NCBI GenBank assembly: GCA_000993115.1 | Contig: LBVN01000003.1 | Span: 1 to 43,633 of the forward strand | DNA: 43,633 nt | Direction: 5' to 3' | Source: Candidatus Woesebacteria bacterium GW2011_GWB1_38_8b | Lineage (GTDB): Bacteria > Patescibacteriota > Microgenomatia > UBA8517 | In this document: positions 1,804 through 38,856 of the stretch, piece by piece | How positions within the stretch are numbered: position 1 is the stretch's first letter | Layout of the letters: each line of letters starts with the position of its first letter | Notes under the pieces: generated by a model | The model's input: only the letters and a program-made list of their open reading frames with translations | What the model was told of the DNA's origin: nothing | The model's database searches: none | Program-made: the position numbers and the translations under genes

Positions 1804-1857
1804 TTCTAAATTCTATCATTCATACAAATACGTCGATATATTTGCTAATATGAATTG

Positions 1858-4320
1858 ATGGAATTTTTAGCGTGGCATTACAGTTTTGGGGTAAATTATT
1901 ACATTGAAAGCTGGATGCGACAGTTCAAATGGATCCGCCATTATTTTTCACTCCCTTTACTTCTACGGACTCTTTTTGCTCCCTGGAAACGGATGATAAT
2001 GTCTGATAATAAGCCCGGATTTGATCTTAACCGATTTTTTCAGACGCTGACTTTCAATATGGTTTCCCGTATTGTCGGAGCGGGAGTGCGAATCACTCTA
2101 TTTTTTGTAGGAATTGTTCTACTAGTTGTAACTTTTTTTGCTGGTGTTTTCGGATTTATATTTTGGGTTTTAATCCCATTTTTTTCGTGGCCTGTTTATA
2201 CAAAATACAATAAAAGACCTGATATTGTTATGCGGGACTTGATGTTTAAAGTTAAAACTACAAGGGATAATCCTTTGCAAGTTTTATTTAACAGTGAACC
2301 GGGATTATTTTTCTTAAATCATTTAGGACTTTCGTACGACTCTTTATCTTCTGCCATAACTTCTGACAAGCTTGATTTAAATAATTTAGCTGCAAAGAAT
2401 TTTTCTGATGTGGTGAATTGGTTTTTGGAAAAAGGGTCATTTGAAGACGAGAGACTACGAAAGTTGGGACTTGTCAAAGAAGATCTCATAACCGTTGCAA
2501 AAATGTGGGATAAGAAAAAAGAGGACGAGTCTTTTTTGGGAAGCGATGAATTAGGGCGTCCGAGCATCGGTTTGGAAGTTCTTTTCGGTTATACTCCGAC
2601 ACTTAATCAATATTCAACCGATCTTTCGGCTCCGCAATCTTTTTCTCATAGGTTAATCGGGCGAGAGGAAATTGTGAATCGAATGTATAGAGAGCTTTCT
2701 GTTGACAGAAGTATTGTTTTAACGGGGGATCCGGGAGTTGGGAAAAAGACGGTGGTGTTGGAGTTTGCGAACCGTGCAGCAACCGGAAAATTCGGGAGCA
2801 AAATGGCATATAAGCGGGTTTTGGAATTTGATTACAATTTTATTCTCTCCGAATCAATGGATATTAACAAGAAAAAAACCCAGCTTACCCAAATTCTTGA
2901 TGAAGCGGCATATGCCGGAAATATAGTACTTATGATCCGCGATCTTCACAGGTTGATTCACTCCGATGTTGAAGGCTTTGATTTTACGGATACTTTTGAA
3001 GCTGCTATGGGACGGGGTGAACTTAAAATTATTGCCGTTGCTACGAATGTTGAATACGAACGCTTTATTGCTCCAAACTCACGACTTCGAAAATATTTTG
3101 AACGGATTGAAGTAACACCTCCATCGAAGGAACAAGCTTATGAAATTTTAGTTGAGTGGGCAAAAACCTTGGAGATCAAAAAGAATCTGATAATTGAGAT
3201 AACGGCACTTCGTAAAATTCTAAACGAGTCTGACCGCTATATTACAGACACTCCTTTTCCTGAAAAAGCCCTGGAGTTACTCGACGCGGTAGTTACTTTT
3301 GTTGAAGAAAGTAAAAAACAGGTAGTTGAAGCTGATGATGTTAATGCAGTATTTGCCGAGAAAACAGGTATTAGTTTGGCACGCTTAACTTCAGAAGAAA
3401 AAACAAAATTAGGGGACTTGGAAAATATAATTCATGAGAATTTAGTAGATCAGGAGTTAGCTGTAAAGCAAATCGCACAGAGTTTGCGTGCAAAAACATT
3501 GGGGGTTTCCGAAAACAAGCGTCCTATCGGATCATTTCTTTTCTTGGGCCCGACCGGAGTCGGAAAAACCGAAACGGCGAAAGTATTGGCAAAAGTTTAC
3601 TACGGCAGCGAGGAACAAATCCTTCGCTTTGATATGGCGGAATATGCAGGGAAAGAGGGGTTTGAGCGGTTAATCGGCTCGCAAGGTAGAAACACACCAG
3701 GTGCATTAACTACTGCTATAAAAAATAAACCTGCAAGCCTTCTTTTACTGGACGAATTTGAAAAAGCCTCGAGAGATATTTTTAATTTATTTTTGACGGT
3801 TCTGGATGAAGGTTATATCACAGATGCTTTCGGAAAAAGAGTTGGCGCGGGAAATCTATTTATTATAGGGACTTCGAATGCCGCTGCTGAATATATAAGA
3901 AAACTTGTCGGAAGCGGCATCCGTGGGGAGGAGCTACAAAAAAGTGTTGTAAATTTTGTTTTGGAAAATGCTATTTTTACGCCTGAGCTTCTAAATCGTT
4001 TTGATGGGGTGATTGTTTATGAACCTCTTGAGGGACCGGAATTAAAGAAGGTAGCAAAATTAATTTTGGATAAATATGCAAAAAATTTGAAAAATAAAGG
4101 AATTATACTAAATGTTACCGATTCTTTGATAGAAAAATTAGCAACTGATGGTTATGATCCGGCATTTGGTGCCCGCCCAATGAGAAGAATAGTCGATTTA
4201 GTAATTTCTGATTTGATTGGGAAAGAAATGATTTCAGGAAATGTCGCAGACGGTGACTCGATAGATATAATTCCCGGTAGCGGTAAAGAAGAATATAAAG
4301 TTGTTAAGAAAACCGGTTAA
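1858..4320 (+). CDS. Membrane-anchored ClpA/B-family double AAA+ ATPase
   Basis: N-terminal hydrophobic helices; NBD1 GDPGVGKK; FPEKALELLD; NBD2 RPIGSFLFLGPTGVGKT, DMAEY, LLLDEFEK, PELLNRFD, FGARPMRR. ATG 1858 preferred to TTG 1855. Confidence 0.9.
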   Translation: MEFLAWHYSFGVNYYIESWMRQFKWIRHYFSLPLLLRTLFAPWKRMIMSDNKPGFDLNRFFQTLTFNMVSRIVGAGVRITLFFVGIVLLVVTFFAGVFGFIFWVLIPFFSWPVYTKYNKRPDIVMRDLMFKVKTTRDNPLQVLFNSEPGLFFLNHLGLSYDSLSSAITSDKLDLNNLAAKNFSDVVNWFLEKGSFEDERLRKLGLVKEDLITVAKMWDKKKEDESFLGSDELGRPSIGLEVLFGYTPTLNQYSTDLSAPQSFSHRLIGREEIVNRMYRELSVDRSIVLTGDPGVGKKTVVLEFANRAATGKFGSKMAYKRVLEFDYNFILSESMDINKKKTQLTQILDEAAYAGNIVLMIRDLHRLIHSDVEGFDFTDTFEAAMGRGELKIIAVATNVEYERFIAPNSRLRKYFERIEVTPPSKEQAYEILVEWAKTLEIKKNLIIEITALRKILNESDRYITDTPFPEKALELLDAVVTFVEESKKQVVEADDVNAVFAEKTGISLARLTSEEKTKLGDLENIIHENLVDQELAVKQIAQSLRAKTLGVSENKRPIGSFLFLGPTGVGKTETAKVLAKVYYGSEEQILRFDMAEYAGKEGFERLIGSQGRNTPGALTTAIKNKPASLLLLDEFEKASRDIFNLFLTVLDEGYITDAFGKRVGAGNLFIIGTSNAAAEYIRKLVGSGIRGEELQKSVVNFVLENAIFTPELLNRFDGVIVYEPLEGPELKKVAKLILDKYAKNLKNKGIILNVTDSLIEKLATDGYDPAFGARPMRRIVDLVISDLIGKEMISGNVADGDSIDIIPGSGKEEYKVVKKTG
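2259..2279. repeat. Degenerate copy of the RAYT-associated palindrome, inside the Clp ATPase CDS
   Basis: tacaagggat-a-atcctttgca; 2 differences from a perfect palindrome; reads TRDNPLQ in frame. Confidence 0.55.
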
Positions 4321-14965: not shown

Positions 14966-15886
14966 ATGGGTAATCAATTTAAAACAGCTTGGAAGTCTAT
15001 AAGAAGATCGCCGTTTCAGGCGATGTCGGCAATTTTGGTATTATCGATTACTTTTTTTGTAATCAGCACGTTGGCCGTACTTACTTACTCGTCCGATAAA
15101 ATACTTCAATATTTTGAGACAAGGCCGCAAGTAATTGCATTTTTAAAATCCGATGCAGCTGATGCTGATATAAACGCTCTTTCCGATAAGCTCAAAGTAG
15201 ATTCTCGGGTATCGAAAGTTACATTTGTTTCAAAAGAACAGGCACTGGAGATTTATAAAAAGGCAACAGAGGAAAATCCATTGTTGTCAGAGTTGGTGAG
15301 CCCGTCGATATTCCCTCCAAGCATAGAATTATCTTTGACAGATTTGAGTTTTGCCCAGGAAGTAATCACAGATATTAAAAAATATCCCGTAATTGATCAG
15401 GTTGGCTTTACCGCAAGTTTGGGAGGGGAAAAAACTCTTGATGATGTTATCAGCCGTCTTCGAAAAGTAACGTTTTATCTTCGTGCCGGAGGCGCGGCTT
15501 TCGCTATTCTTTTGGCATCGACATCATTTTTAGTTCTTATGATAATTATAGGGATGCGTATGACTGCCAGGCGTGGGGAAATTGAAATACTGGAGTTAAT
15601 CGGAGCAACCCCCGGTTTTATCAGAAGCCCAATAATAATTGAGGCGATTCTATATTCGGTGATAGGAGTTTTTATGGGATGGTTTGTGTCGCTTCTTCTG
15701 ACACTTTATACAACTCCGACATTGGTATCTTATTTTAAAGATATTCCGATTCTACCCAAAGATACAATGTCGCTTCTCCTTTTATTTTTAGTATTATTTG
15801 CGGTTGAAATCTTGATTGGATTTATTCTTTCTCTTACGGGCAGCTATTTGGCTGTTTCAAGAGCGAAGAGTAAGAAAAAACGATGA
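14966..15886 (+). CDS. ftsX: Cell division permease FtsX
   Basis: 4-TM pattern, FVSKEQAL, RRGEIEILELIGAT..FIRSP. Confidence 0.92.
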   Translation: MGNQFKTAWKSIRRSPFQAMSAILVLSITFFVISTLAVLTYSSDKILQYFETRPQVIAFLKSDAADADINALSDKLKVDSRVSKVTFVSKEQALEIYKKATEENPLLSELVSPSIFPPSIELSLTDLSFAQEVITDIKKYPVIDQVGFTASLGGEKTLDDVISRLRKVTFYLRAGGAAFAILLASTSFLVLMIIIGMRMTARRGEIEILELIGATPGFIRSPIIIEAILYSVIGVFMGWFVSLLLTLYTTPTLVSYFKDIPILPKDTMSLLLLFLVLFAVEILIGFILSLTGSYLAVSRAKSKKKR

Positions 15887-17067
15887 CACGAAAAATTACA
15901 CTTCTTCTTTTTATTTTCTTTTTCGCGGTTTTTTATAGCCAACAAGTCTCCAATACCGGATTTAATGGAAAAGTGCTGCTTGCCCAAAGCGAAGAAGAAA
16001 AACTTACAAAATTAAAAAATGATATTGAGCAGTACGAGAAAGAACTTGCACGATTAACGAGTGCTGCCAGTACTTTGCAGAACCAAATAGCTCAATTTGA
16101 TACACAAATAAAACTGACGCAGCTTAAAATTGCACAAACAGAAGAACAAATTAACCTGTTGGGAGGACGGATTGACCGGCTTGGCGAATCTTTGACTTCC
16201 CTGACCACCGCTTTTAACGAAAGGGCTGTCCAAACTTACAAAATGGCAATCTTAGGTCAACCATTGTATTTATTGGTAACTGCTCCGAATTTGAATCAGG
16301 CAGTATCAAGTTACCACTATCTCAAAAGAATCCAAAATGACGATATGGATTTGCTTAATAGACTTCAAAACGCCCAGGACCTTTATAAAACCCAAAAGAC
16401 CGATCAGGAAAAATTACAAGCCGACCTTGAGAAACAAAGGGCAAATTTGGCGTCGCAAAAAAATGCTAAGGCCTCGCTTTTGACGCAGACTAAAAATGAC
16501 GAGAAAAAATATCAACAGTTACTCGCTTCCGCAAAGAGCGAATTTGAAGCAATCCAGGCAATTATTTCGGGTCGGGGTGAGGAAGAAAAGGTAGGGCCTG
16601 TTTCTGCAGGTGCGAGAATCGCTTCAATTATTGACGGACCATCTTGTAACTCCAGCGGGAGGCATACACACTTTATTGTAAAAGATGGGGCGAATGTTCA
16701 AAACCCATTTTCGTATCTAAAACCCGGAATTGATTTTGAAAATTGTTCGGGAAGTAGTTGCGGAAGCGGCGATGGGGACTCATTTAATCCAGGAGGGAGT
16801 TGGGATTGGCCGATTAATGCAAAGGTGAAATTTACACAGGGGTACGGTTCCACTTGGGCTGTAAGAAATACTTGGGTTGGTCGGGTATATTCATCTCATA
16901 ATGGAATCGATGTTGACAGTGCATCAAGCACAGATATAAAAGCAGTAAAAACAGGTACGCTTTACCGTGGATCTTATTCAGGATCGGGTGGATGCAGACT
17001 TCGTTATGTCCGCGTTGATCACGACGATTCAGAAATCGAAACTTATTATCTTCATGTGAATTACTGA
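15883..17067 (+). CDS. Coiled-coil (EnvC/PcsB-like) murein hydrolase with circularly permuted M23 domain
   Basis: Signal peptide, long coiled coil, HTHF...NPFSYL followed by WP...HNGID...TYYLH; overlaps ftsX by 4 nt. Confidence 0.8.
   Translation: MTRKITLLLFIFFFAVFYSQQVSNTGFNGKVLLAQSEEEKLTKLKNDIEQYEKELARLTSAASTLQNQIAQFDTQIKLTQLKIAQTEEQINLLGGRIDRLGESLTSLTTAFNERAVQTYKMAILGQPLYLLVTAPNLNQAVSSYHYLKRIQNDDMDLLNRLQNAQDLYKTQKTDQEKLQADLEKQRANLASQKNAKASLLTQTKNDEKKYQQLLASAKSEFEAIQAIISGRGEEEKVGPVSAGARIASIIDGPSCNSSGRHTHFIVKDGANVQNPFSYLKPGIDFENCSGSSCGSGDGDSFNPGGSWDWPINAKVKFTQGYGSTWAVRNTWVGRVYSSHNGIDVDSASSTDIKAVKTGTLYRGSYSGSGGCRLRYVRVDHDDSEIETYYLHVNY
17035..17067 (+). repeat. Direct repeat copy 1 (3' end of the M23 gene)
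   Basis: atcgaaacttattatcttcatgtgaattactga; 29/33 identical to 18178-18210. Confidence 0.85.
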
Positions 17068-17103: not shown

Positions 17104-17126
17104 CCCACAAGGGATAATCCCTTGTA
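17104..17126. repeat. RAYT-associated palindrome (REP-like)
   Basis: cccacaagggataatcccttgta; 22/23 match to the reverse complement of 34123-34145. Confidence 0.85.
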
Positions 17127-30836: not shown

Positions 30837-30870
30837 CCATTTAGGGCAGCTTGGGTGTAAAATAAGATTG

Positions 30871-32715
30871 ATGAGGAAAATACTTGCGTTTTTTGCATCA
30901 ATACTAACCCTTTTTATTTTTACTTCAAAAGCGGCTTTTGCCCAAGACAGTTATATTATTGAGGACTTCAAAAGTGACATTACCATTAATCGCGATACAT
31001 CTGTAACTGTCGCCGAAACTATAAGAGCTAAATTTCGCTACGATAAACACGGGATAATAAGGGTTCTGCCGGCAGTTTATTCCCACGCGGGAAAAAGCAT
31101 TAATTCTCATATTAAAATAATCTCAGTTACAGATGAAGACGGAAATTATTATAACTATACGACCGAAAGATTGAACCAAAGTATCCGCTTAAAAATCGGC
31201 GATCCGGATAAAACAATTACCGGCACTCACATTTATAAAATAGAATACAAATTAAACGGAGTTATTTTAAAATACGATGGAATTCCTGAATTTTATTGGA
31301 ATGTTAACGGCCACGAATGGGATACACAAATTATGAGCGCTTCTGCAACTGTAAAAACGGACTATGCAAAACCTATCGATACAATTTGCTACACAGGGTT
31401 ACCCGATTCAGGCGACTCTGATTGCGAAAAATTAACATACGATGACCATGTAGAATTTTCAACTCTGGAAATTAACCCCGGAGCCGATTTTTCGTTTGCT
31501 GTGAAGTTTGATACCAATAATTCCTTAATTTTTCCAAGCAGCTCTCAGAGGTTATCTTCGTCAGCTTTTGATAATTGGGGATATATCCCGTCGGTCATTC
31601 CGCTTTTTTTGATCGTTTATATCTGGTACAAAAAAGGCCGGGATGAAAAGTATGTTGGAGACAATTATTACTACAAGCCCGATAATCCAAAAACCGAAAC
31701 AGTCACAATATTTAAGCGGGGACATATTCCCTTGGTTTATCATCCATTAGACGGTTTGTCTCCTGCGCAGGTAGGAACTATTTTGGATGAACGCATTGAC
31801 ATTAACGACATTGTTGCAGAAATTGTTGAGTTGGCACGTTTGAAATTTATAAAAATTGAAAAACTGCCTAAGAAAAACGTTTTATCAAAACAAGATTATG
31901 CAATCACTAAACTTAATAAAGATGACGCAAAACTGACCGATTATCAAAAAGAAATTATAAAAGAATTATTCAGAAATCAAATACAATCAGATTCGATTTT
32001 TGAACTAGCAAAACTTATCGAAAATCCAACCGATGAAGAGAAGGAGCTGAAAAAAACCGTCGGAGCCGATTATGTAACATTATCTTCATTGAAAAATCAT
32101 TTTTATGCGGCGCTTCCCAACATAAAGAAAAAAGTTTATAAAAGCCTGGCAGAAGCCGAACTTTTTGATGGGAGCCCTGATACTGTAAGAATAAAATATA
32201 TCGGACTGTTTATATTTTTGAGTTTCGTATTTGGATTTTTAACACTCATATATAGTATTTATTATTATAATTTTGTTCCGCTTTTCTTATTTATAATGGG
32301 AAGTGTTTTTGGCATATTTTTTGCAATGGCTATGCCGAAAAAAACTGCATGGGGTTATTCAATGTATAAGCAGGTCCGGGGACTTCGTGAATACTTGGAA
32401 GTTGGAAAATGGAGACACGAAAACTATGAGAAAAATATGTTTTTTGAAGAAATGATACCGTTGGCAATATCTTTAGGGGTAATTAATAAATTGGCAGGAG
32501 ATATGAATGAATTGGGGATTCAACCGCCAAGGTATATGAGCGGATTTACGATAGCACATTTTGCCTCGGATATGAGTTCGTTTAGATCAACGGCCGCATC
32601 AACCTTTGCTTCCGTTCCTGGCGGATCAGGACACTCTAGTTGGGGTGGTGGGTCAGGGTTTTCCGGTGGCGGCTCAGGCGGGGGGTTTGGTGGAGGGGGA
32701 GGGGGAAGTTGGTAG
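30871..32715 (+). CDS. DUF2207 family membrane protein
   Basis: VAETI...KHGIIR, IGDPD, EFYWNVNG..W, PLDGLSPA, P.AISLG, Gly-rich GGGGGSW C-terminus. Confidence 0.9.
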   Translation: MRKILAFFASILTLFIFTSKAAFAQDSYIIEDFKSDITINRDTSVTVAETIRAKFRYDKHGIIRVLPAVYSHAGKSINSHIKIISVTDEDGNYYNYTTERLNQSIRLKIGDPDKTITGTHIYKIEYKLNGVILKYDGIPEFYWNVNGHEWDTQIMSASATVKTDYAKPIDTICYTGLPDSGDSDCEKLTYDDHVEFSTLEINPGADFSFAVKFDTNNSLIFPSSSQRLSSSAFDNWGYIPSVIPLFLIVYIWYKKGRDEKYVGDNYYYKPDNPKTETVTIFKRGHIPLVYHPLDGLSPAQVGTILDERIDINDIVAEIVELARLKFIKIEKLPKKNVLSKQDYAITKLNKDDAKLTDYQKEIIKELFRNQIQSDSIFELAKLIENPTDEEKELKKTVGADYVTLSSLKNHFYAALPNIKKKVYKSLAEAELFDGSPDTVRIKYIGLFIFLSFVFGFLTLIYSIYYYNFVPLFLFIMGSVFGIFFAMAMPKKTAWGYSMYKQVRGLREYLEVGKWRHENYEKNMFFEEMIPLAISLGVINKLAGDMNELGIQPPRYMSGFTIAHFASDMSSFRSTAASTFASVPGGSGHSSWGGGSGFSGGGSGGGFGGGGGGSW

Positions 32716-33335: not shown

Positions 33336-33406
33336 TTTTTTTCAAAGAAATATGAAAATCGCTGGAAAGCAGAAAACCTTGTTAAGTAAAAAGTAGGTGA
33401 AATACG

Positions 33407-33427
33407 TACGAGGGATTATCCCTCGTA
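33407..33427. repeat. RAYT-associated palindrome, directly after the transposase stop
   Basis: tacgagggat-t-atccctcgta, perfect 10-bp inverted repeat. Confidence 0.9.
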
Positions 33428-33624
33428 GTTAATCTTCCAATGTAAACCTTCCTAACAACTCCCTTTCGTTTTCCTTATAATTTTCAACAAATGATTGATA
33501 TGTCAAGATTTTAGATGGAAATTGTGATTTGTCGTTTTGAAACATTTGCAAAATTGGTTTTGGATTTAACCAATCGGGACAATTTATACCAATATAATAC
33601 TTATAGCTTGAATATTTGTATTTA

Positions 33625-33645
33625 TGCAAGGGATTATCCCTTGCA
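33625..33645. repeat. RAYT-associated palindrome inside the transposase CDS
   Basis: tgcaagggat-t-atcccttgca, perfect; reads ARDNPLH. Confidence 0.9.
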
Positions 33646-33913
33646 AGCAGCTCACTTGGATTAAGATGAATGTATCTTGATAAGTGAAGGAAATAGGATT
33701 CATCCAAGATAAGGACCGCTTTATACACACCCTGAAACAGCCTGCCGGTTCTTTCATAAGTTTTATTAAAATACATAGAATAGTTTGTTAAGAGAGCTTT
33801 AGAGAACCTTTTTAAACCATATTTTGATTTCTGACGAATAAGTAAATGGAAATGGTTGGGCATAAGGCAGTATGATATGAGTTCAATATCGTCATAACAA
33901 TTTAACGGTTTTC

Positions 33914-33934
33914 TACGAGGGATAATCCCTTGTA
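33914..33934. repeat. RAYT-associated palindrome inside the transposase CDS
   Basis: tacgagggat-a-atcccttgta, one G-T; reads IQGIIPR. Confidence 0.88.
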
Positions 33935-34122
33935 TTTTCAACAAATCTGGATGGTCGATTGGCAGTAAATATTCTTTGAGAAGCCTGAGAAAAACTGAAT
34001 AGTCCAAATCTCTTTGGAAAATCTTTCGTTTATCAACTCCTCGATTATATATGTGGTAGTATCCGCCTTCTATGTAAGTTTTAACTGAGTTTAATGGAGG
34101 CATATTTAATTTTATCATGCGC

Positions 34123-34145
34123 TACAAGGGATAATCCCTTGTGGG
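34123..34145. repeat. RAYT-associated palindrome upstream of the transposase
   Basis: tacaagggat-a-atcccttgtggg. Confidence 0.9.
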
Positions 34146-34232
34146 AGGCTGCATAGATATAACCTATGGGGTATTGTTGGGGTTGGTGTGTTATCCAATA
34201 ATTTTAATCTATTTTGTTATAGTTAATTACTA

Positions 34233-34292: not shown

Positions 34293-35705
34293 ATGAAGAA
34301 AATATTATCAAGCCTTACCATCCTCAGCCTGACACTTGCGCTAGCAATCGGATTTTCTCGGGCATTTTTCTCCGATACAGAAACTTCAAAAGATAACAAA
34401 CTCACAGCAGGAAAAATTGATTTACTTGTTGATAACACTTCTTATTACAACGGAGTAAAAAATGAAGGAACAACCTTTACTCCAAGCGATTTACCGGAAA
34501 AATATTTTTTCAATTTTACAGATTTAAAGCCAGATGATTACGGTGAAGATACGATAAGCTTGCACGTTGATGATAACGATGCTTGGGCTTGTATGAAAAT
34601 TACAAAGACTGCCGATGATGATAATACCTGCACTGAGCCTGAAAAAATTGACGATCCGTCGTGTTTGGAACCCGATAACGATACTGATGACGGTGAGCTT
34701 GGAGACAATCTACTCTTTGTTTTCTGGGCAGATGATGGTGATAATGTTTTGGAAGTTGGCGAAGATCCAACTTGGAGGAAAGGAAGCGCTTCAAGTCTTT
34801 TTGACGGAACCGTTTGGCCACTCGCTGATTCATCCTTCAATGTTTGGGGTGAAGCTTCTGGAACACGGTTGGCTCCAAATCCGCGACCAGTCGCCGAGTA
34901 TCCACTTGGTCCCGCTGGGGATAATAATGGAAACAATATAGCTGGTGAACCTGAAGACGGAGGATTTTTCTGTGACGGCGAGACTCTTAATAATGTAACC
35001 CAAACCGATATTTTCCTTGCAGATGTTGAATTTTGGGCAGAGCAGCGCCGACATAACGACAATTTCCGTTGCGACGGAACGACCCCATCAGGAACACCGA
35101 CAAATACTCCGACTCCAACTCCATCACTTGTTGCTTGCCAACAGGCTGATGTGATACTTGTGCTTGATAGGTCGGGAAGTATTGACGGCACAGAACTTGC
35201 TACTCTAAAAACCGCCGCAAAAACTTTCATTGACGATCTTGGTCTTTCAGCCTCAGGAATTCACGCAGGTTTCTCAAGTTTCGCAACTACTGCATCACTT
35301 AATCAGCACTTAACGGACAATGGCACAACAGTTAAAAACGCAATCGACCTACTTCCTTCAAGCGGATTTACAAACCTGAAAGAGGGAATTGATCTTGCAA
35401 TCGGTGAACATGCAAACCCCGGCGATAATCACGATAGAGAAGATGTTGGCTCTCCCGACAAAATGATAATTATTACGGACGGTCATCCGAACCGTCCACT
35501 TCCCGAATCAACTGCCGATGATGTTGCAAAAGCTTCGGCCGATGCAGCGAGGTCTGCTGGTGCTGAAGTCTATGTTGTCGGAATCGGAAGCGATGTAAAT
35601 GCAAGTTATCTGCAGACAGTAGCAAATGATGCAGGCCACTATTACCCGGTTTCGGGTTATGGCGGTCTTCAGACTGTGTTACAGAATTTGGACCTCTGCG
35701 ATTAG
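34293..35705 (+). CDS. TasA/CalY-like protein with SipW-type signal and C-terminal VWA domain
   Basis: SRA|FFSDTETSKDNKLTAGKIDL; DLKPDD.GE; VWA MIDAS DRSGS...TN...ITDG. Confidence 0.85.
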   Translation: MKKILSSLTILSLTLALAIGFSRAFFSDTETSKDNKLTAGKIDLLVDNTSYYNGVKNEGTTFTPSDLPEKYFFNFTDLKPDDYGEDTISLHVDDNDAWACMKITKTADDDNTCTEPEKIDDPSCLEPDNDTDDGELGDNLLFVFWADDGDNVLEVGEDPTWRKGSASSLFDGTVWPLADSSFNVWGEASGTRLAPNPRPVAEYPLGPAGDNNGNNIAGEPEDGGFFCDGETLNNVTQTDIFLADVEFWAEQRRHNDNFRCDGTTPSGTPTNTPTPTPSLVACQQADVILVLDRSGSIDGTELATLKTAAKTFIDDLGLSASGIHAGFSSFATTASLNQHLTDNGTTVKNAIDLLPSSGFTNLKEGIDLAIGEHANPGDNHDREDVGSPDKMIIITDGHPNRPLPESTADDVAKASADAARSAGAEVYVVGIGSDVNASYLQTVANDAGHYYPVSGYGGLQTVLQNLDLCD

Positions 35706-38013: not shown

Positions 38014-38856
38014 ATGAAAAGAATTTTATTAAGCATTTCAACAATCGCATTAGTTGCAGCTTTTGTAGCTCTCGGCACAAATGCATTTTTCAATGACACT
38101 GAGACTTCAACTGGAAATAAGTTGGAAGCAGGTTCAATTGATCTTAAAGTAGATAATCATAGTTATATTGATCAAGGACACGGACTCGTAGAAAATGCTG
38201 ACACAACTTGGAGAGCAAGCGACCTGAATAACGAGACTCTTTTCTTTAATTTTACGGATTTAAAACCCGGAGATCTTGGAGAAGATACAATCAGCTTACA
38301 TGTTGATAGTAATCCATCATGGTTGTGTGCCGATATATCTTTGACTGCTGATGACGATGTTTCTTGTACTGAACCTGAAAAAGCTGACGATCCTACTTGT
38401 ACGGATCCGGGAGCACCTGGAAATACGACTCTTTTTGATGGGGAATTAGCTCATGCATTAAACTTTATTTTCTGGAAAGATGATGGAGATAATGTACTGG
38501 AAGATAATGAAGTTAATGGGATTCTGACACAAGGTCCGGCAAGTGGAGTATTAAATGGCGCCCATTGGGCACTTTTTGATTCATCAACAGGTGGACCGAC
38601 AGATCCTACACAAGTTTACTTTATAGGCAAAGCTTGGTGTTTTGGAGCATTAACACTTAATGCCGTAACTCAAGACAATTTACCGGGTCAGCCTACAAAT
38701 GGCCCCGATGTTAGAGGAGCAGGTGTAAAGTGCGACGGAACTTTAGTAAATAACGCAGCCCAAACCGATTTGGTTACGGGTGATGTTATATTCCGAGCAG
38801 TGCAGGCAAGGCATAATGATCCTTTCTATTGTGATGGAAGGCAATTGCCTGTGTAA
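38014..38856 (+). CDS. TasA/CalY-like protein with SipW-type signal (candidate major fibre subunit)
   Basis: SD ggaggtg; GTNA|FFNDTETSTGNKLEAGSIDLKV; DLKPGD.GEDTISLHV; paralog of 34293. Confidence 0.88.
   Translation: MKRILLSISTIALVAAFVALGTNAFFNDTETSTGNKLEAGSIDLKVDNHSYIDQGHGLVENADTTWRASDLNNETLFFNFTDLKPGDLGEDTISLHVDSNPSWLCADISLTADDDVSCTEPEKADDPTCTDPGAPGNTTLFDGELAHALNFIFWKDDGDNVLEDNEVNGILTQGPASGVLNGAHWALFDSSTGGPTDPTQVYFIGKAWCFGALTLNAVTQDNLPGQPTNGPDVRGAGVKCDGTLVNNAAQTDLVTGDVIFRAVQARHNDPFYCDGRQLPV

Follow-up and report, generated by a model that had tools for sequence, protein, structure and literature searches.

Four copies of one palindrome at a RAYT-like gene

The window analysed here is a stretch of 43,633 nucleotides (nt), positions 1 to 43,633 of contig LBVN01000003.1 of Candidatus Woesebacteria bacterium GW2011_GWB1_38_8b, a very small groundwater bacterium. 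On its reverse strand it encodes an enzyme resembling the REP-associated tyrosine transposases (RAYTs; REP, repetitive extragenic palindrome), and one palindrome occurs at this gene four times: upstream of the coding sequence (site U), in frame at two places within it (sites I1 and I2) and downstream of it (site D; Table 1). RAYTs and their REPs are a textbook case of a domesticated transposase that co-evolves with a short repeat, and to our knowledge it is not understood how enzyme and repeat stay matched over time. We found that the four-place layout is a property of the enzyme's family, and that the window locus is one of the few that hold all four sites.

The core shared by the copies, AGGGATWATCCCT, was found by a pattern search of the window at 33411, 33629, 33918 and 34127, each time within a palindrome of 19-21 bp at the enzyme gene; additional sites lie at 17110 (exact) and 2263 (one mismatch). 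The chance level is 0.03 matches, and none of 100 dinucleotide shuffles reached six. Together with the within-locus identity counts given below, these shuffles rule out chance or base composition as the source of the palindromes. The outer bases of the arms vary among the four copies at the gene, always in paired fashion. The central base on the forward strand is T in the copies at 33407 and 33625 and A in those at 33914 and 34123, so that the centre is flipped between the two pairs (the four centres read T, T, A and A on the coding strand). Translation of the open reading frame (ORF) and coordinate arithmetic place I1 and I2 in different codon registers. An earlier note, made from the letters of the window, had described four palindromes at these places, compensatory variation of their arms and two copies translated in different frames (ARDNPLH and IQGIIPR), and all three observations held.

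Folded as single-stranded DNA (ssDNA), the palindromes form stems of 8-9 bp closed by a 3-nt loop, with energies between -7.1 and -9.4 kcal/mol and z scores between -4.4 and -5.2. None of 200 shuffles was as stable, except for the 33914 copy on the coding strand, which is weaker (-3.3 kcal/mol; 7 of 200 shuffles equally good). In the predicted structure of the enzyme, I2 falls in the loop directly after the tyrosine-bearing helix (residues 140-156), and I1 falls at the end of helix 57-65 and in the loop preceding strand 78-86. Site D was flagged as terminator-like on the forward strand by a consensus scan.

The gene encodes a Y1/HUH enzyme with a RAYT-type fold

The protein matches the Pfam family Y1_Tnp (PF01797) over residues 77-151 with 37.5 bits against a gathering cut-off of 23 (E 2.9e-9), and H89, F90, H91, Y149 and N153 are invariant across 49 aligned sequences. 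Its tyrosine motif, YIHLNP, has the Y---NP form that the available part of Quentin et al. (2018; PMC6006769) gives as the criterion for RAYTs (TnpA-REP, class 2). The AlphaFold model has a mean pLDDT of 87, and its top match in the PDB by Foldseek is 4er8_A, the Escherichia coli RAYT with a REP hairpin (E 1.2e-6, TM-score 0.62 on the target), followed by the ISDra2, IS608 and IS200 transposases (2xqc, 2vjv and 2f4f), with E values of 1e-6 to 1e-4 overall. When solved structures were searched by sequence, a single-sequence search returned no match at E up to 1, and a profile search returned weak ISDra2 matches only (E 0.003). The Pfam match, the invariant HUH, Tyr149 and Asn153 residues and the 4er8 fold match bear out the initial assignment of the gene to RAYT-type Y1/HUH enzymes.

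Within this class, the enzyme carries motifs of the subclass 2.1 type: NHFH at residues 88-91, FQ at 128-129, YIHLNP at 149-154 and SS at 170-171. Compared by eye with the table in the accessible text of PMC6006769, this motif set and a length of about 225 amino acids (aa) fit subclass 2.1 (Bertels group 1, TIRYT) and not subclass 2.4. A Pfam scan of the enzyme at E up to 0.1 found no second domain, so no C-terminal helix-turn-helix (HTH) or Bac_DnaA_C-like domain. The signature of IS200/IS605 enzymes (subclass 1.1) is also lacking, with N153 where a glutamine is expected and the gene present in a single copy. A protein 68% identical to the enzyme is present in the protein collection; the best relative in a metagenome scan is only 50% identical. 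The true start is likely the ATG at 34103, which encodes the sixth residue of the listed ORF, and not 34118, because the family consensus begins MPxKN and a 100%-identical protein in the collection has 224 aa.

Table 1. Coordinates of the enzyme gene, its motifs and the palindromes in the window.
Feature	Position	Strand	Detail
RAYT-like Y1/HUH enzyme ORF	33429..34118	-	229 aa as listed; likely ATG at 34103-34101 gives 224 aa
HUH motif, H89-F-H91	33846-33854	-	from alignment
Catalytic Tyr149	33672-33674	-	followed by Asn153 within YIHLNP, residues 149-154
Site D, downstream palindrome TACGAGGGATTATCCCTCGTA	33407-33427		perfect 10+1+10; starts 2 nt past the stop codon; between two convergent ORFs
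Site I2, in-frame palindrome TGCAAGGGATTATCCCTTGCA	33625-33645		perfect; encodes (L)ARDNPLH, residues 158-165
Site I1, in-frame palindrome TACGAGGGATAATCCCTTGTA	33914-33934		one G/T position in arms; encodes IQGIIPR, residues 62-68
Site U, upstream palindrome ACAAGGGATAATCCCTTGT	34123-34143 (perfect core 34124-34142)		9+1+9; about -40 to -20 from the ATG at 34103
Extended -10-like element TGATAAAAT	34109..34117	-	read by eye; ends 5 nt before the ATG at 34103
Lone intergenic exact copy	17107..17125		40 nt past the stop of the M23-peptidase-like ORF 15883..17067; 54 nt before the next ORF
Degenerate copy	2260..2278		2 substitutions in 19; in frame in the ClpB/ClpC-like AAA+ gene 1855..4320 (+)

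The four-place layout recurs across the family

Palindromes, defined as arms with at least 8 matches and at most one mismatch around a loop of at most 5 nt, were mapped to query coordinates in three sets of loci. The first held the best 70 loci by E-value from 125 genomes of the same GTDB family, chosen blind to palindromes; the second, independent set held 80 metagenome loci; and the third, which shares some loci with the first, held 80 from species genomes. The enzyme gene was matched in 68 of the 125 genomes, often in several copies.

Across the 70 loci of the first set, palindromes piled up in 20-nt bins at -20 (28 palindromes), 180-200 (21), 460-500 (14) and 680-720 (48), and every remaining bin held 0-6. 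Site U was occupied in 35 loci, I1 in 24, I2 in 14 and D in 43, with 5 of the 14 I2 calls AT-rich and probably due to chance. One site was held by 22 loci, two by 18, three by 18, none by 11 and all four by the window locus only. The same four peaks appeared in the metagenome set (U 47, I1 25, I2 23 and D 60 of 80 loci), which contains more loci with all four sites (L072, L074, L085, L097, L105/L106, L134 and L147). The third set agrees with the four-place layout, which over all sets is seen in well over a hundred related loci with a palindrome of their own. Its carriers are, by their record titles, mostly Patescibacteria (Woesebacteria, Daviesbacteria, Levybacteria, Saccharibacteria and others), and the Saccharibacteria members have mostly flanking copies only.

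Throughout the family the palindromes keep an inner AAGG/CCTT or AGGG/CCCT stem and vary in their centre and outer arms; most family palindromes start with TTGACA, TTGCA or CCTTAAA. The GT[AG]G tag is absent from the 5' foot of the hairpin, and some copies in the window have CTAC at the 5' side and GTAG at the 3' side within the stem, in the opposite polarity. The earlier note had proposed a cognate, REP-like repeat of a class without the GTAG tag, a proposal supported by the homologues' own palindromes at the same four places and by their scattering in relatives' genomes (below).

Record titles may not always be a guide to the source organism. Two loci of the window's GTDB family are titled Candidatus Woesebacteria, and L168 is the same as L006 by coordinates. 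Many records of metagenome-assembled genomes with a Patescibacteria-type gene are titled 'uncultured Gammaproteobacteria bacterium' (L167, L173, L175 and others); these titles look like placeholder or wrong labels, because L167 matches L004, a locus of the window's family, in both coordinates and palindromes.

Each locus has its own palindrome, dispersed in relatives

A comparison within and between 78 loci was restricted to palindromes of odd length with 15 nt or more and a G+C content of 35% or higher. At least 13 of the 15 central bases were shared in 167 of 178 within-locus pairs (mean 14.3), against 346 of 5000 random between-locus pairs (mean 9.0). Paralogues within a genome, which share at most 69.9% identity in 46 pairs, each have a different palindrome at all their sites, and one genome holds six such pairs.

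The palindromes are also found away from the gene. Relatives' genomes were searched with arm patterns that left the five central bases free and tolerated one mismatch at most, with the reversed pattern as control. Three closed 0.8-Mb genomes of one genus contained 9, 26 and 25 scattered sites and four further relatives' genomes 24, 22, 12 and 11; the reversed pattern gave 0 sites in every one of these seven. In one genome (G035), 20 copies lie apart from the enzyme gene: 4 fall within long open frames and 16 in no open frame of 90 aa or more, the latter often 2-30 nt from the end of a frame; some copies are paired 58-67 nt apart. Four of these 20 scattered TGACAAGG-type copies (L151, L153, L155 and L156) have CCCTTTAA(A/G)G within 5-8 nt, a motif that resembles an arm of a second palindrome type belonging to that genus's other enzyme paralogue. 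Such adjoining motifs hint at composite arrays of two repeat families, similar to bacterial interspersed mosaic elements.

Two copies away from the gene lie in the window itself (Table 1). The intergenic one, the sole solo exact copy in the genome, has flanks (CCCACAAGGG...CCCTTGTAT) that resemble the enzyme gene's upstream copy. The degenerate one sits in the N-terminal part of the ClpB/ClpC-like ORF and reads TRDNPLQ, close to the enzyme's ARDNPLH.

The upstream copy overlaps promoter-like sequence

Promoter-like sequence was sought in the 133 of 150 loci in which the consensus start is an in-frame ATG preceded by 60 nt of sequence (17 were excluded). In 103 of these loci the end of a TANNNT element precedes the ATG by 4-9 nt (most often 5-6), and the combination of TTGNNN, a spacer of 16-18 nt (mostly 17) and TANNNT occurs in 67; shuffles averaged 1.3 such loci and never exceeded 5. 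Under a stricter test, TTGACA with at most one mismatch, 21 of the 133 loci remain. The 5' arm of the upstream palindrome supplies the TTG hexamer of the family (TTGCAA, TTGCAG or TTGACA). Read from the sequence, this geometry implies a leaderless or near-leaderless mRNA with the hairpin lying over the -35 element and the spacer. The earlier note had placed the upstream copy at the -35 position of a leaderless promoter; the geometry does recur in the family, and the placement is reasonable, if unproven, for the window locus, whose upstream region is taken up below.

The gene is inherited vertically and its palindromes probably turn over at the DNA level

Among seven congeneric ortholog pairs, both flanks of the locus are homologous in four and one flank in the other three. 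Homologous flanks and diverged paralogues together are evidence against a currently jumping insertion sequence. In the contigs of four DNA sequencing runs the element is unchanged (for example, 33381-34224 in one record); a look through sequencing runs listed no RNA run with the element. A contig record from a single run (X4) contains a back-joint from 33932 to 33626, with 5 extra letters, that links the two in-frame palindromes. A circle, or a tandem duplication, of the 307-bp segment would give such a joint, which could also be another organism's.

Within orthologous loci the palindromes change in a manner of their own. The orthologues L009 and L036 share 87% of their protein and 77% of their DNA sequence over 864 aligned columns; their palindromes have identical arms, and the 3-nt centre is inverted (CGC versus GCG) at U and I2, not at D, which changes GSHP to GCDP in the protein. 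Among 169 related pairs from 76 loci, the centre had the same orientation in 113, was flipped in 54 and could not be determined in 2.

In-frame copies do not appear more worn than flanking ones. In 53 loci the mean arm is 10.7 for in-frame and 10.8 for flanking copies; the in-frame copy exceeded the flanking one in 18 loci, fell short of it in 23 and matched it in 12 (p = 0.53, sign test), a comparison that counts only palindromes above threshold and so carries a detection bias. At each in-frame site most centres, though not all, share one codon register (36/7/1 at I1 and 21/7/3 at I2), and the window's I1 and I2 are both in minority registers.

The alignment is variable and rich in indels around both in-frame sites, and 25-28 residues separate YIH from SSY in loci with a true I2, the modal number being 23. 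On a FastTree phylogeny of 147 proteins (3 of 150 were too short and were excluded), the presence of I1 requires no fewer than 26 changes and that of I2 no fewer than 14, against means of 38 and 31 for shuffled labels; these counts are rough, as the tree was built from all columns including those of I1 and I2. We read I1 and I2 as tolerant loops onto which the current hairpin has been pasted on more than one occasion; a single ancient insertion fits less well.

A probable domesticated nuclease with a private hairpin, and alternatives

We consider it probable that the gene encodes a domesticated RAYT-type ssDNA nuclease/ligase (TnpA-Y1 class 2), that a REP-like hairpin is private to it, and that correction at the DNA level keeps the copies of this hairpin alike. 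The hairpin would form on ssDNA and be bound by the enzyme, which would cut beside it in the manner of E. coli RAYT and REP; this recognition is suggested by the fold, the locus-specific pairing and, by analogy, the behaviour of E. coli RAYT as given in the available part of Messing (2012; PMC3479197). The four copies would be kept alike through copy-correction between palindromes, either by enzyme-mediated strand transfer or by hairpin-templated repair. The same process may also flip the hairpin centre and rewrite a few codons at the in-frame sites, which would be tolerant loops re-pasted more than once. Binding of the enzyme at the promoter copy would probably damp transcription of its own gene, a proposal that stems from the position of the upstream copy over the -35 and spacer of a leaderless-type promoter; such autoregulation is a structural inference from the sequence.

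Several results weigh against this reading or parts of it. The enzyme scores 33.9 bits with the NCBIfam RAYT equivalog NF047646, under the cut-off of 80, and the family lacks the 5' GT[AG]G tag that E. coli RAYT needs for binding and cleavage according to the portion of PMC3479197 drawn on here. At the threshold chosen, 11 loci of the first set have no palindrome at any site. The own assembly (903,868 bp in 33 contigs, 37.6% G+C, 85.5% complete) has a single copy of the gene and five exact copies of the palindrome, all in the window and four of them at the gene. A 19-mer search with up to 4 substitutions added the copy at 2260 (2 substitutions) and a half-like site on contig 11 (3 substitutions); two matches with 4 substitutions were taken as chance, as the reversed control also gave two. 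With the repeat so barely dispersed, present mobilising activity in this genome is doubtful. The genome-wide enrichment that the earlier note had expected, and whose lack it would have counted against its idea, is thus missing from the own genome and is found in the relatives, where homologues' genes and genomes carry their own palindromes.

Further adverse points concern the promoter and the turnover. By a strict criterion of span, a scored palindrome reaches from the -35 to near the -10 in only 27 of the 67 promoter-like loci, and the window's upstream copy has no TTG hexamer at the right distance from the -10-like element; for want of a -35 match the consensus scan did not list the TGATAAAAT site. 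It lists instead a weak promoter further upstream (34281-34252, 9/12), from which the hairpin would fall in the 5' leader. Centre flips can occur spontaneously in any stem-loop, and are therefore no proof of enzyme action. None of the contig joints listed is read here as an excision or deletion, because their short sides span 21-32 letters and their high depth comes from homologues of other organisms.

A different account of the in-frame copies alone is possible, if less likely: REPs may have landed in two tolerant loops, as in subclass 2.4, and be plain passengers without a role for the gene. The indel-rich surroundings of both sites, their place in loops and at a helix end of the model, the absence of I1 from 46 and of I2 from 56 of the 70 loci and the frequent changes of presence on the tree all agree with this account, and REPs lie in frame in other genes too, here in the ClpB-like gene. 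Against it, the in-frame copies equal the flanking ones in length and perfection in the 53 loci, track the flanking sequence and recur at the same two places in separate sets of loci, which argues for maintenance or repeated renewal, not decay. The passenger account is compatible with most of what we propose for the enzyme and its hairpin and parts from it solely over the importance of the in-frame copies.

A stronger version of our proposal seems unlikely to us. It would make the locus a self-referential enzyme-target module, in which the in-frame copies are master hairpins, strand exchange catalysed by the enzyme continually rewrites the promoter, the 3' end and a few codons, and the promoter copy sets expression. 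An inverted hairpin centre that alters two residues already separates sister species. Were the module real, the specificities of enzyme and target would drift in step, inherited as a single unit, and the hundreds of locus-specific pairs in Patescibacteria would form a natural catalogue of matched ssDNA nucleases and hairpin addresses. The earlier note, which had the enzyme targeting or autoregulating its own gene, is right on the kind of system and too strong on self-targeting.

It is improbable that the palindromes serve mainly as signals for the host, whether as part of a promoter, as a 3' terminator or stabiliser, as mRNA structure or as the operator of a different, dimeric protein, and that they are unrecognised by the enzyme and perfect only through hairpin-templated repair. 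The upstream copy does coincide with the -35 and spacer in many loci, the downstream copy adjoins the stop codon in terminator-like fashion, REPs are known as 3' RNA elements in the literature as far as it was available, and perfect twofold symmetry would suit a dimeric binder of duplex DNA. Host signals leave unexplained why each paralogue has a different palindrome at all its sites, why the sequence is identical at two in-frame sites and why 9-26 copies are scattered, mostly between genes. Co-variation with the enzyme gene is moreover the hallmark of RAYT and REP in the part of PMC6006769 consulted.

Least plausible, and very improbable in our view, is that the 737 bp from 33407 to 34143 make up an autonomous insertion sequence of the IS200 type that uses the outer palindromes as subterminal hairpins and transposes via a single-stranded circle: its size, single Y1 gene, hairpins at both ends, fold matches to IS608 and ISDra2 TnpA and patchy, often multicopy occurrence in the family would suit such an element, but the gene is single-copy here, no within-genome paralogue pair exceeds the identity given above, flanks are conserved between orthologues, the palindromes are scattered alone and the gene is not, hairpin orientation is free to flip, and the motif is Y---NP and not the Y---Q of IS200 (criterion as excerpted from PMC6006769). 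An adjacent enzyme gene (within 1.5 kb) is missing from all 11 relatives' loci with the neighbouring VWA gene, which would also suit such an element, but these loci share no upstream synteny with the window and lack its other upstream genes, so that they are not empty sites and bear no information on insertion.

Neighbouring genes

The gene for a VWA-type secreted protein (34293..35705) adjoins the enzyme gene and has a paralogue 2.3 kb downstream (38014..38841); in relatives (L248-L258), VWA-type genes form tandem arrays of 2-3 paralogues. Two genes upstream, a 615-aa membrane-protein ORF (30868..32715, +) ends in a long glycine-rich tail, GGGSGFSGGGSGGGFGGGGGGSW, which a proline-rich antisense ORF overlaps.

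Comparison with known systems

The locus resembles several described systems without coinciding with any of them. IS200/IS605 TnpA enzymes (IS608, ISDra2) would, by analogy, share its HUH/tyrosine chemistry on hairpin ssDNA, and they share a unit of about 0.7 kb with a hairpin at each end. The window's family differs from them in its class of Y motif, syntenic loci, free hairpin orientation and lack of identical copies and of tnpB.

Nunvar reportedly described, in 2010, RAYT or TnpA-REP genes with flanking REPs, termed REPtrons, and such systems are by now well described. With the REPtron of E. coli RayT (PDB 4ER8) the locus shares the Y1/HUH fold, Y---NP, single or low copy number, vertical inheritance and a gene bracketed by a gene-specific palindromic repeat that is also scattered through the genome (here, in relatives). 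It differs from it in having no 5' GTAG tag, a perfect palindrome with a centre of 1-5 nt instead of an imperfect stem with a bulge, very few copies (5, and 9-26 in relatives), an enzyme under the NCBIfam equivalog cut-off, and copies in frame within the gene and over its promoter.

Intragenic copies, which the earlier note had regarded as unlike known RAYT loci, have a precedent in TnpAY1 subclass 2.4 (Bertels group 4), where REPs occur in frame within tnpAREP, between HuH and Y (Quentin et al., 2018; PMC6006769, as far as its text was available). There too, cognate REPs flank the gene and sit inside it without a frame break, in variable surface regions. The same portion of that paper sets subclass 2.4 apart from the window enzyme in three respects: its motifs are WQ and YIxNNP, against FQ and YIHLNP here; its lineages are Cyanobacteria and Bacteroidetes, against Patescibacteria; and its in-frame REPs fall between HuH and Y, whereas ours encode residues 62-68, before HuH, and 158-165, after the tyrosine helix, both outside 89-149.

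In its motifs the enzyme stands closest to subclass 2.1 (Bertels group 1, the TIRYT enzymes of 'TIRtrons'), with which it shares NH[YF]H, FQ, Y[IV]HLNP, an SS tail and a length of about 230 aa in the sections of PMC6006769 at hand. REP-like sequences were not found near subclass 2.1 genes, according to the same sections. In the available text of Di Nocera et al. (2013; PMC3733652), inverted repeats surround TIRYT genes; part of these repeats are self-complementary, and part form small families. The TIRYT consensus, GGGGWSAS in that text, is absent here, as is the C-terminal HTH or DnaA_C-like domain in our Pfam scan, and in-frame copies such as ours are unreported for subclass 2.1 in those parts of the two papers.

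A full-text literature search found no paper on the four-place layout in Patescibacteria. The family differs from the described cases in its lineage, in a perfect palindrome that lacks the GTAG tag, in having two fixed in-frame positions that fall outside the stretch from HuH to Y, in embedding in the promoter and in a very low number of repeats. A subclass described as lacking REPs, in the text of PMC6006769 available to us, thus has them in lineages that were unsampled in 2018. The Patescibacteria family offers many compact pairs of an enzyme of about 225 aa and a perfect hairpin of 19-27 nt, with the target written four times in the gene, an arrangement that makes specificity, autoregulation and the mechanism of concerted change directly testable.

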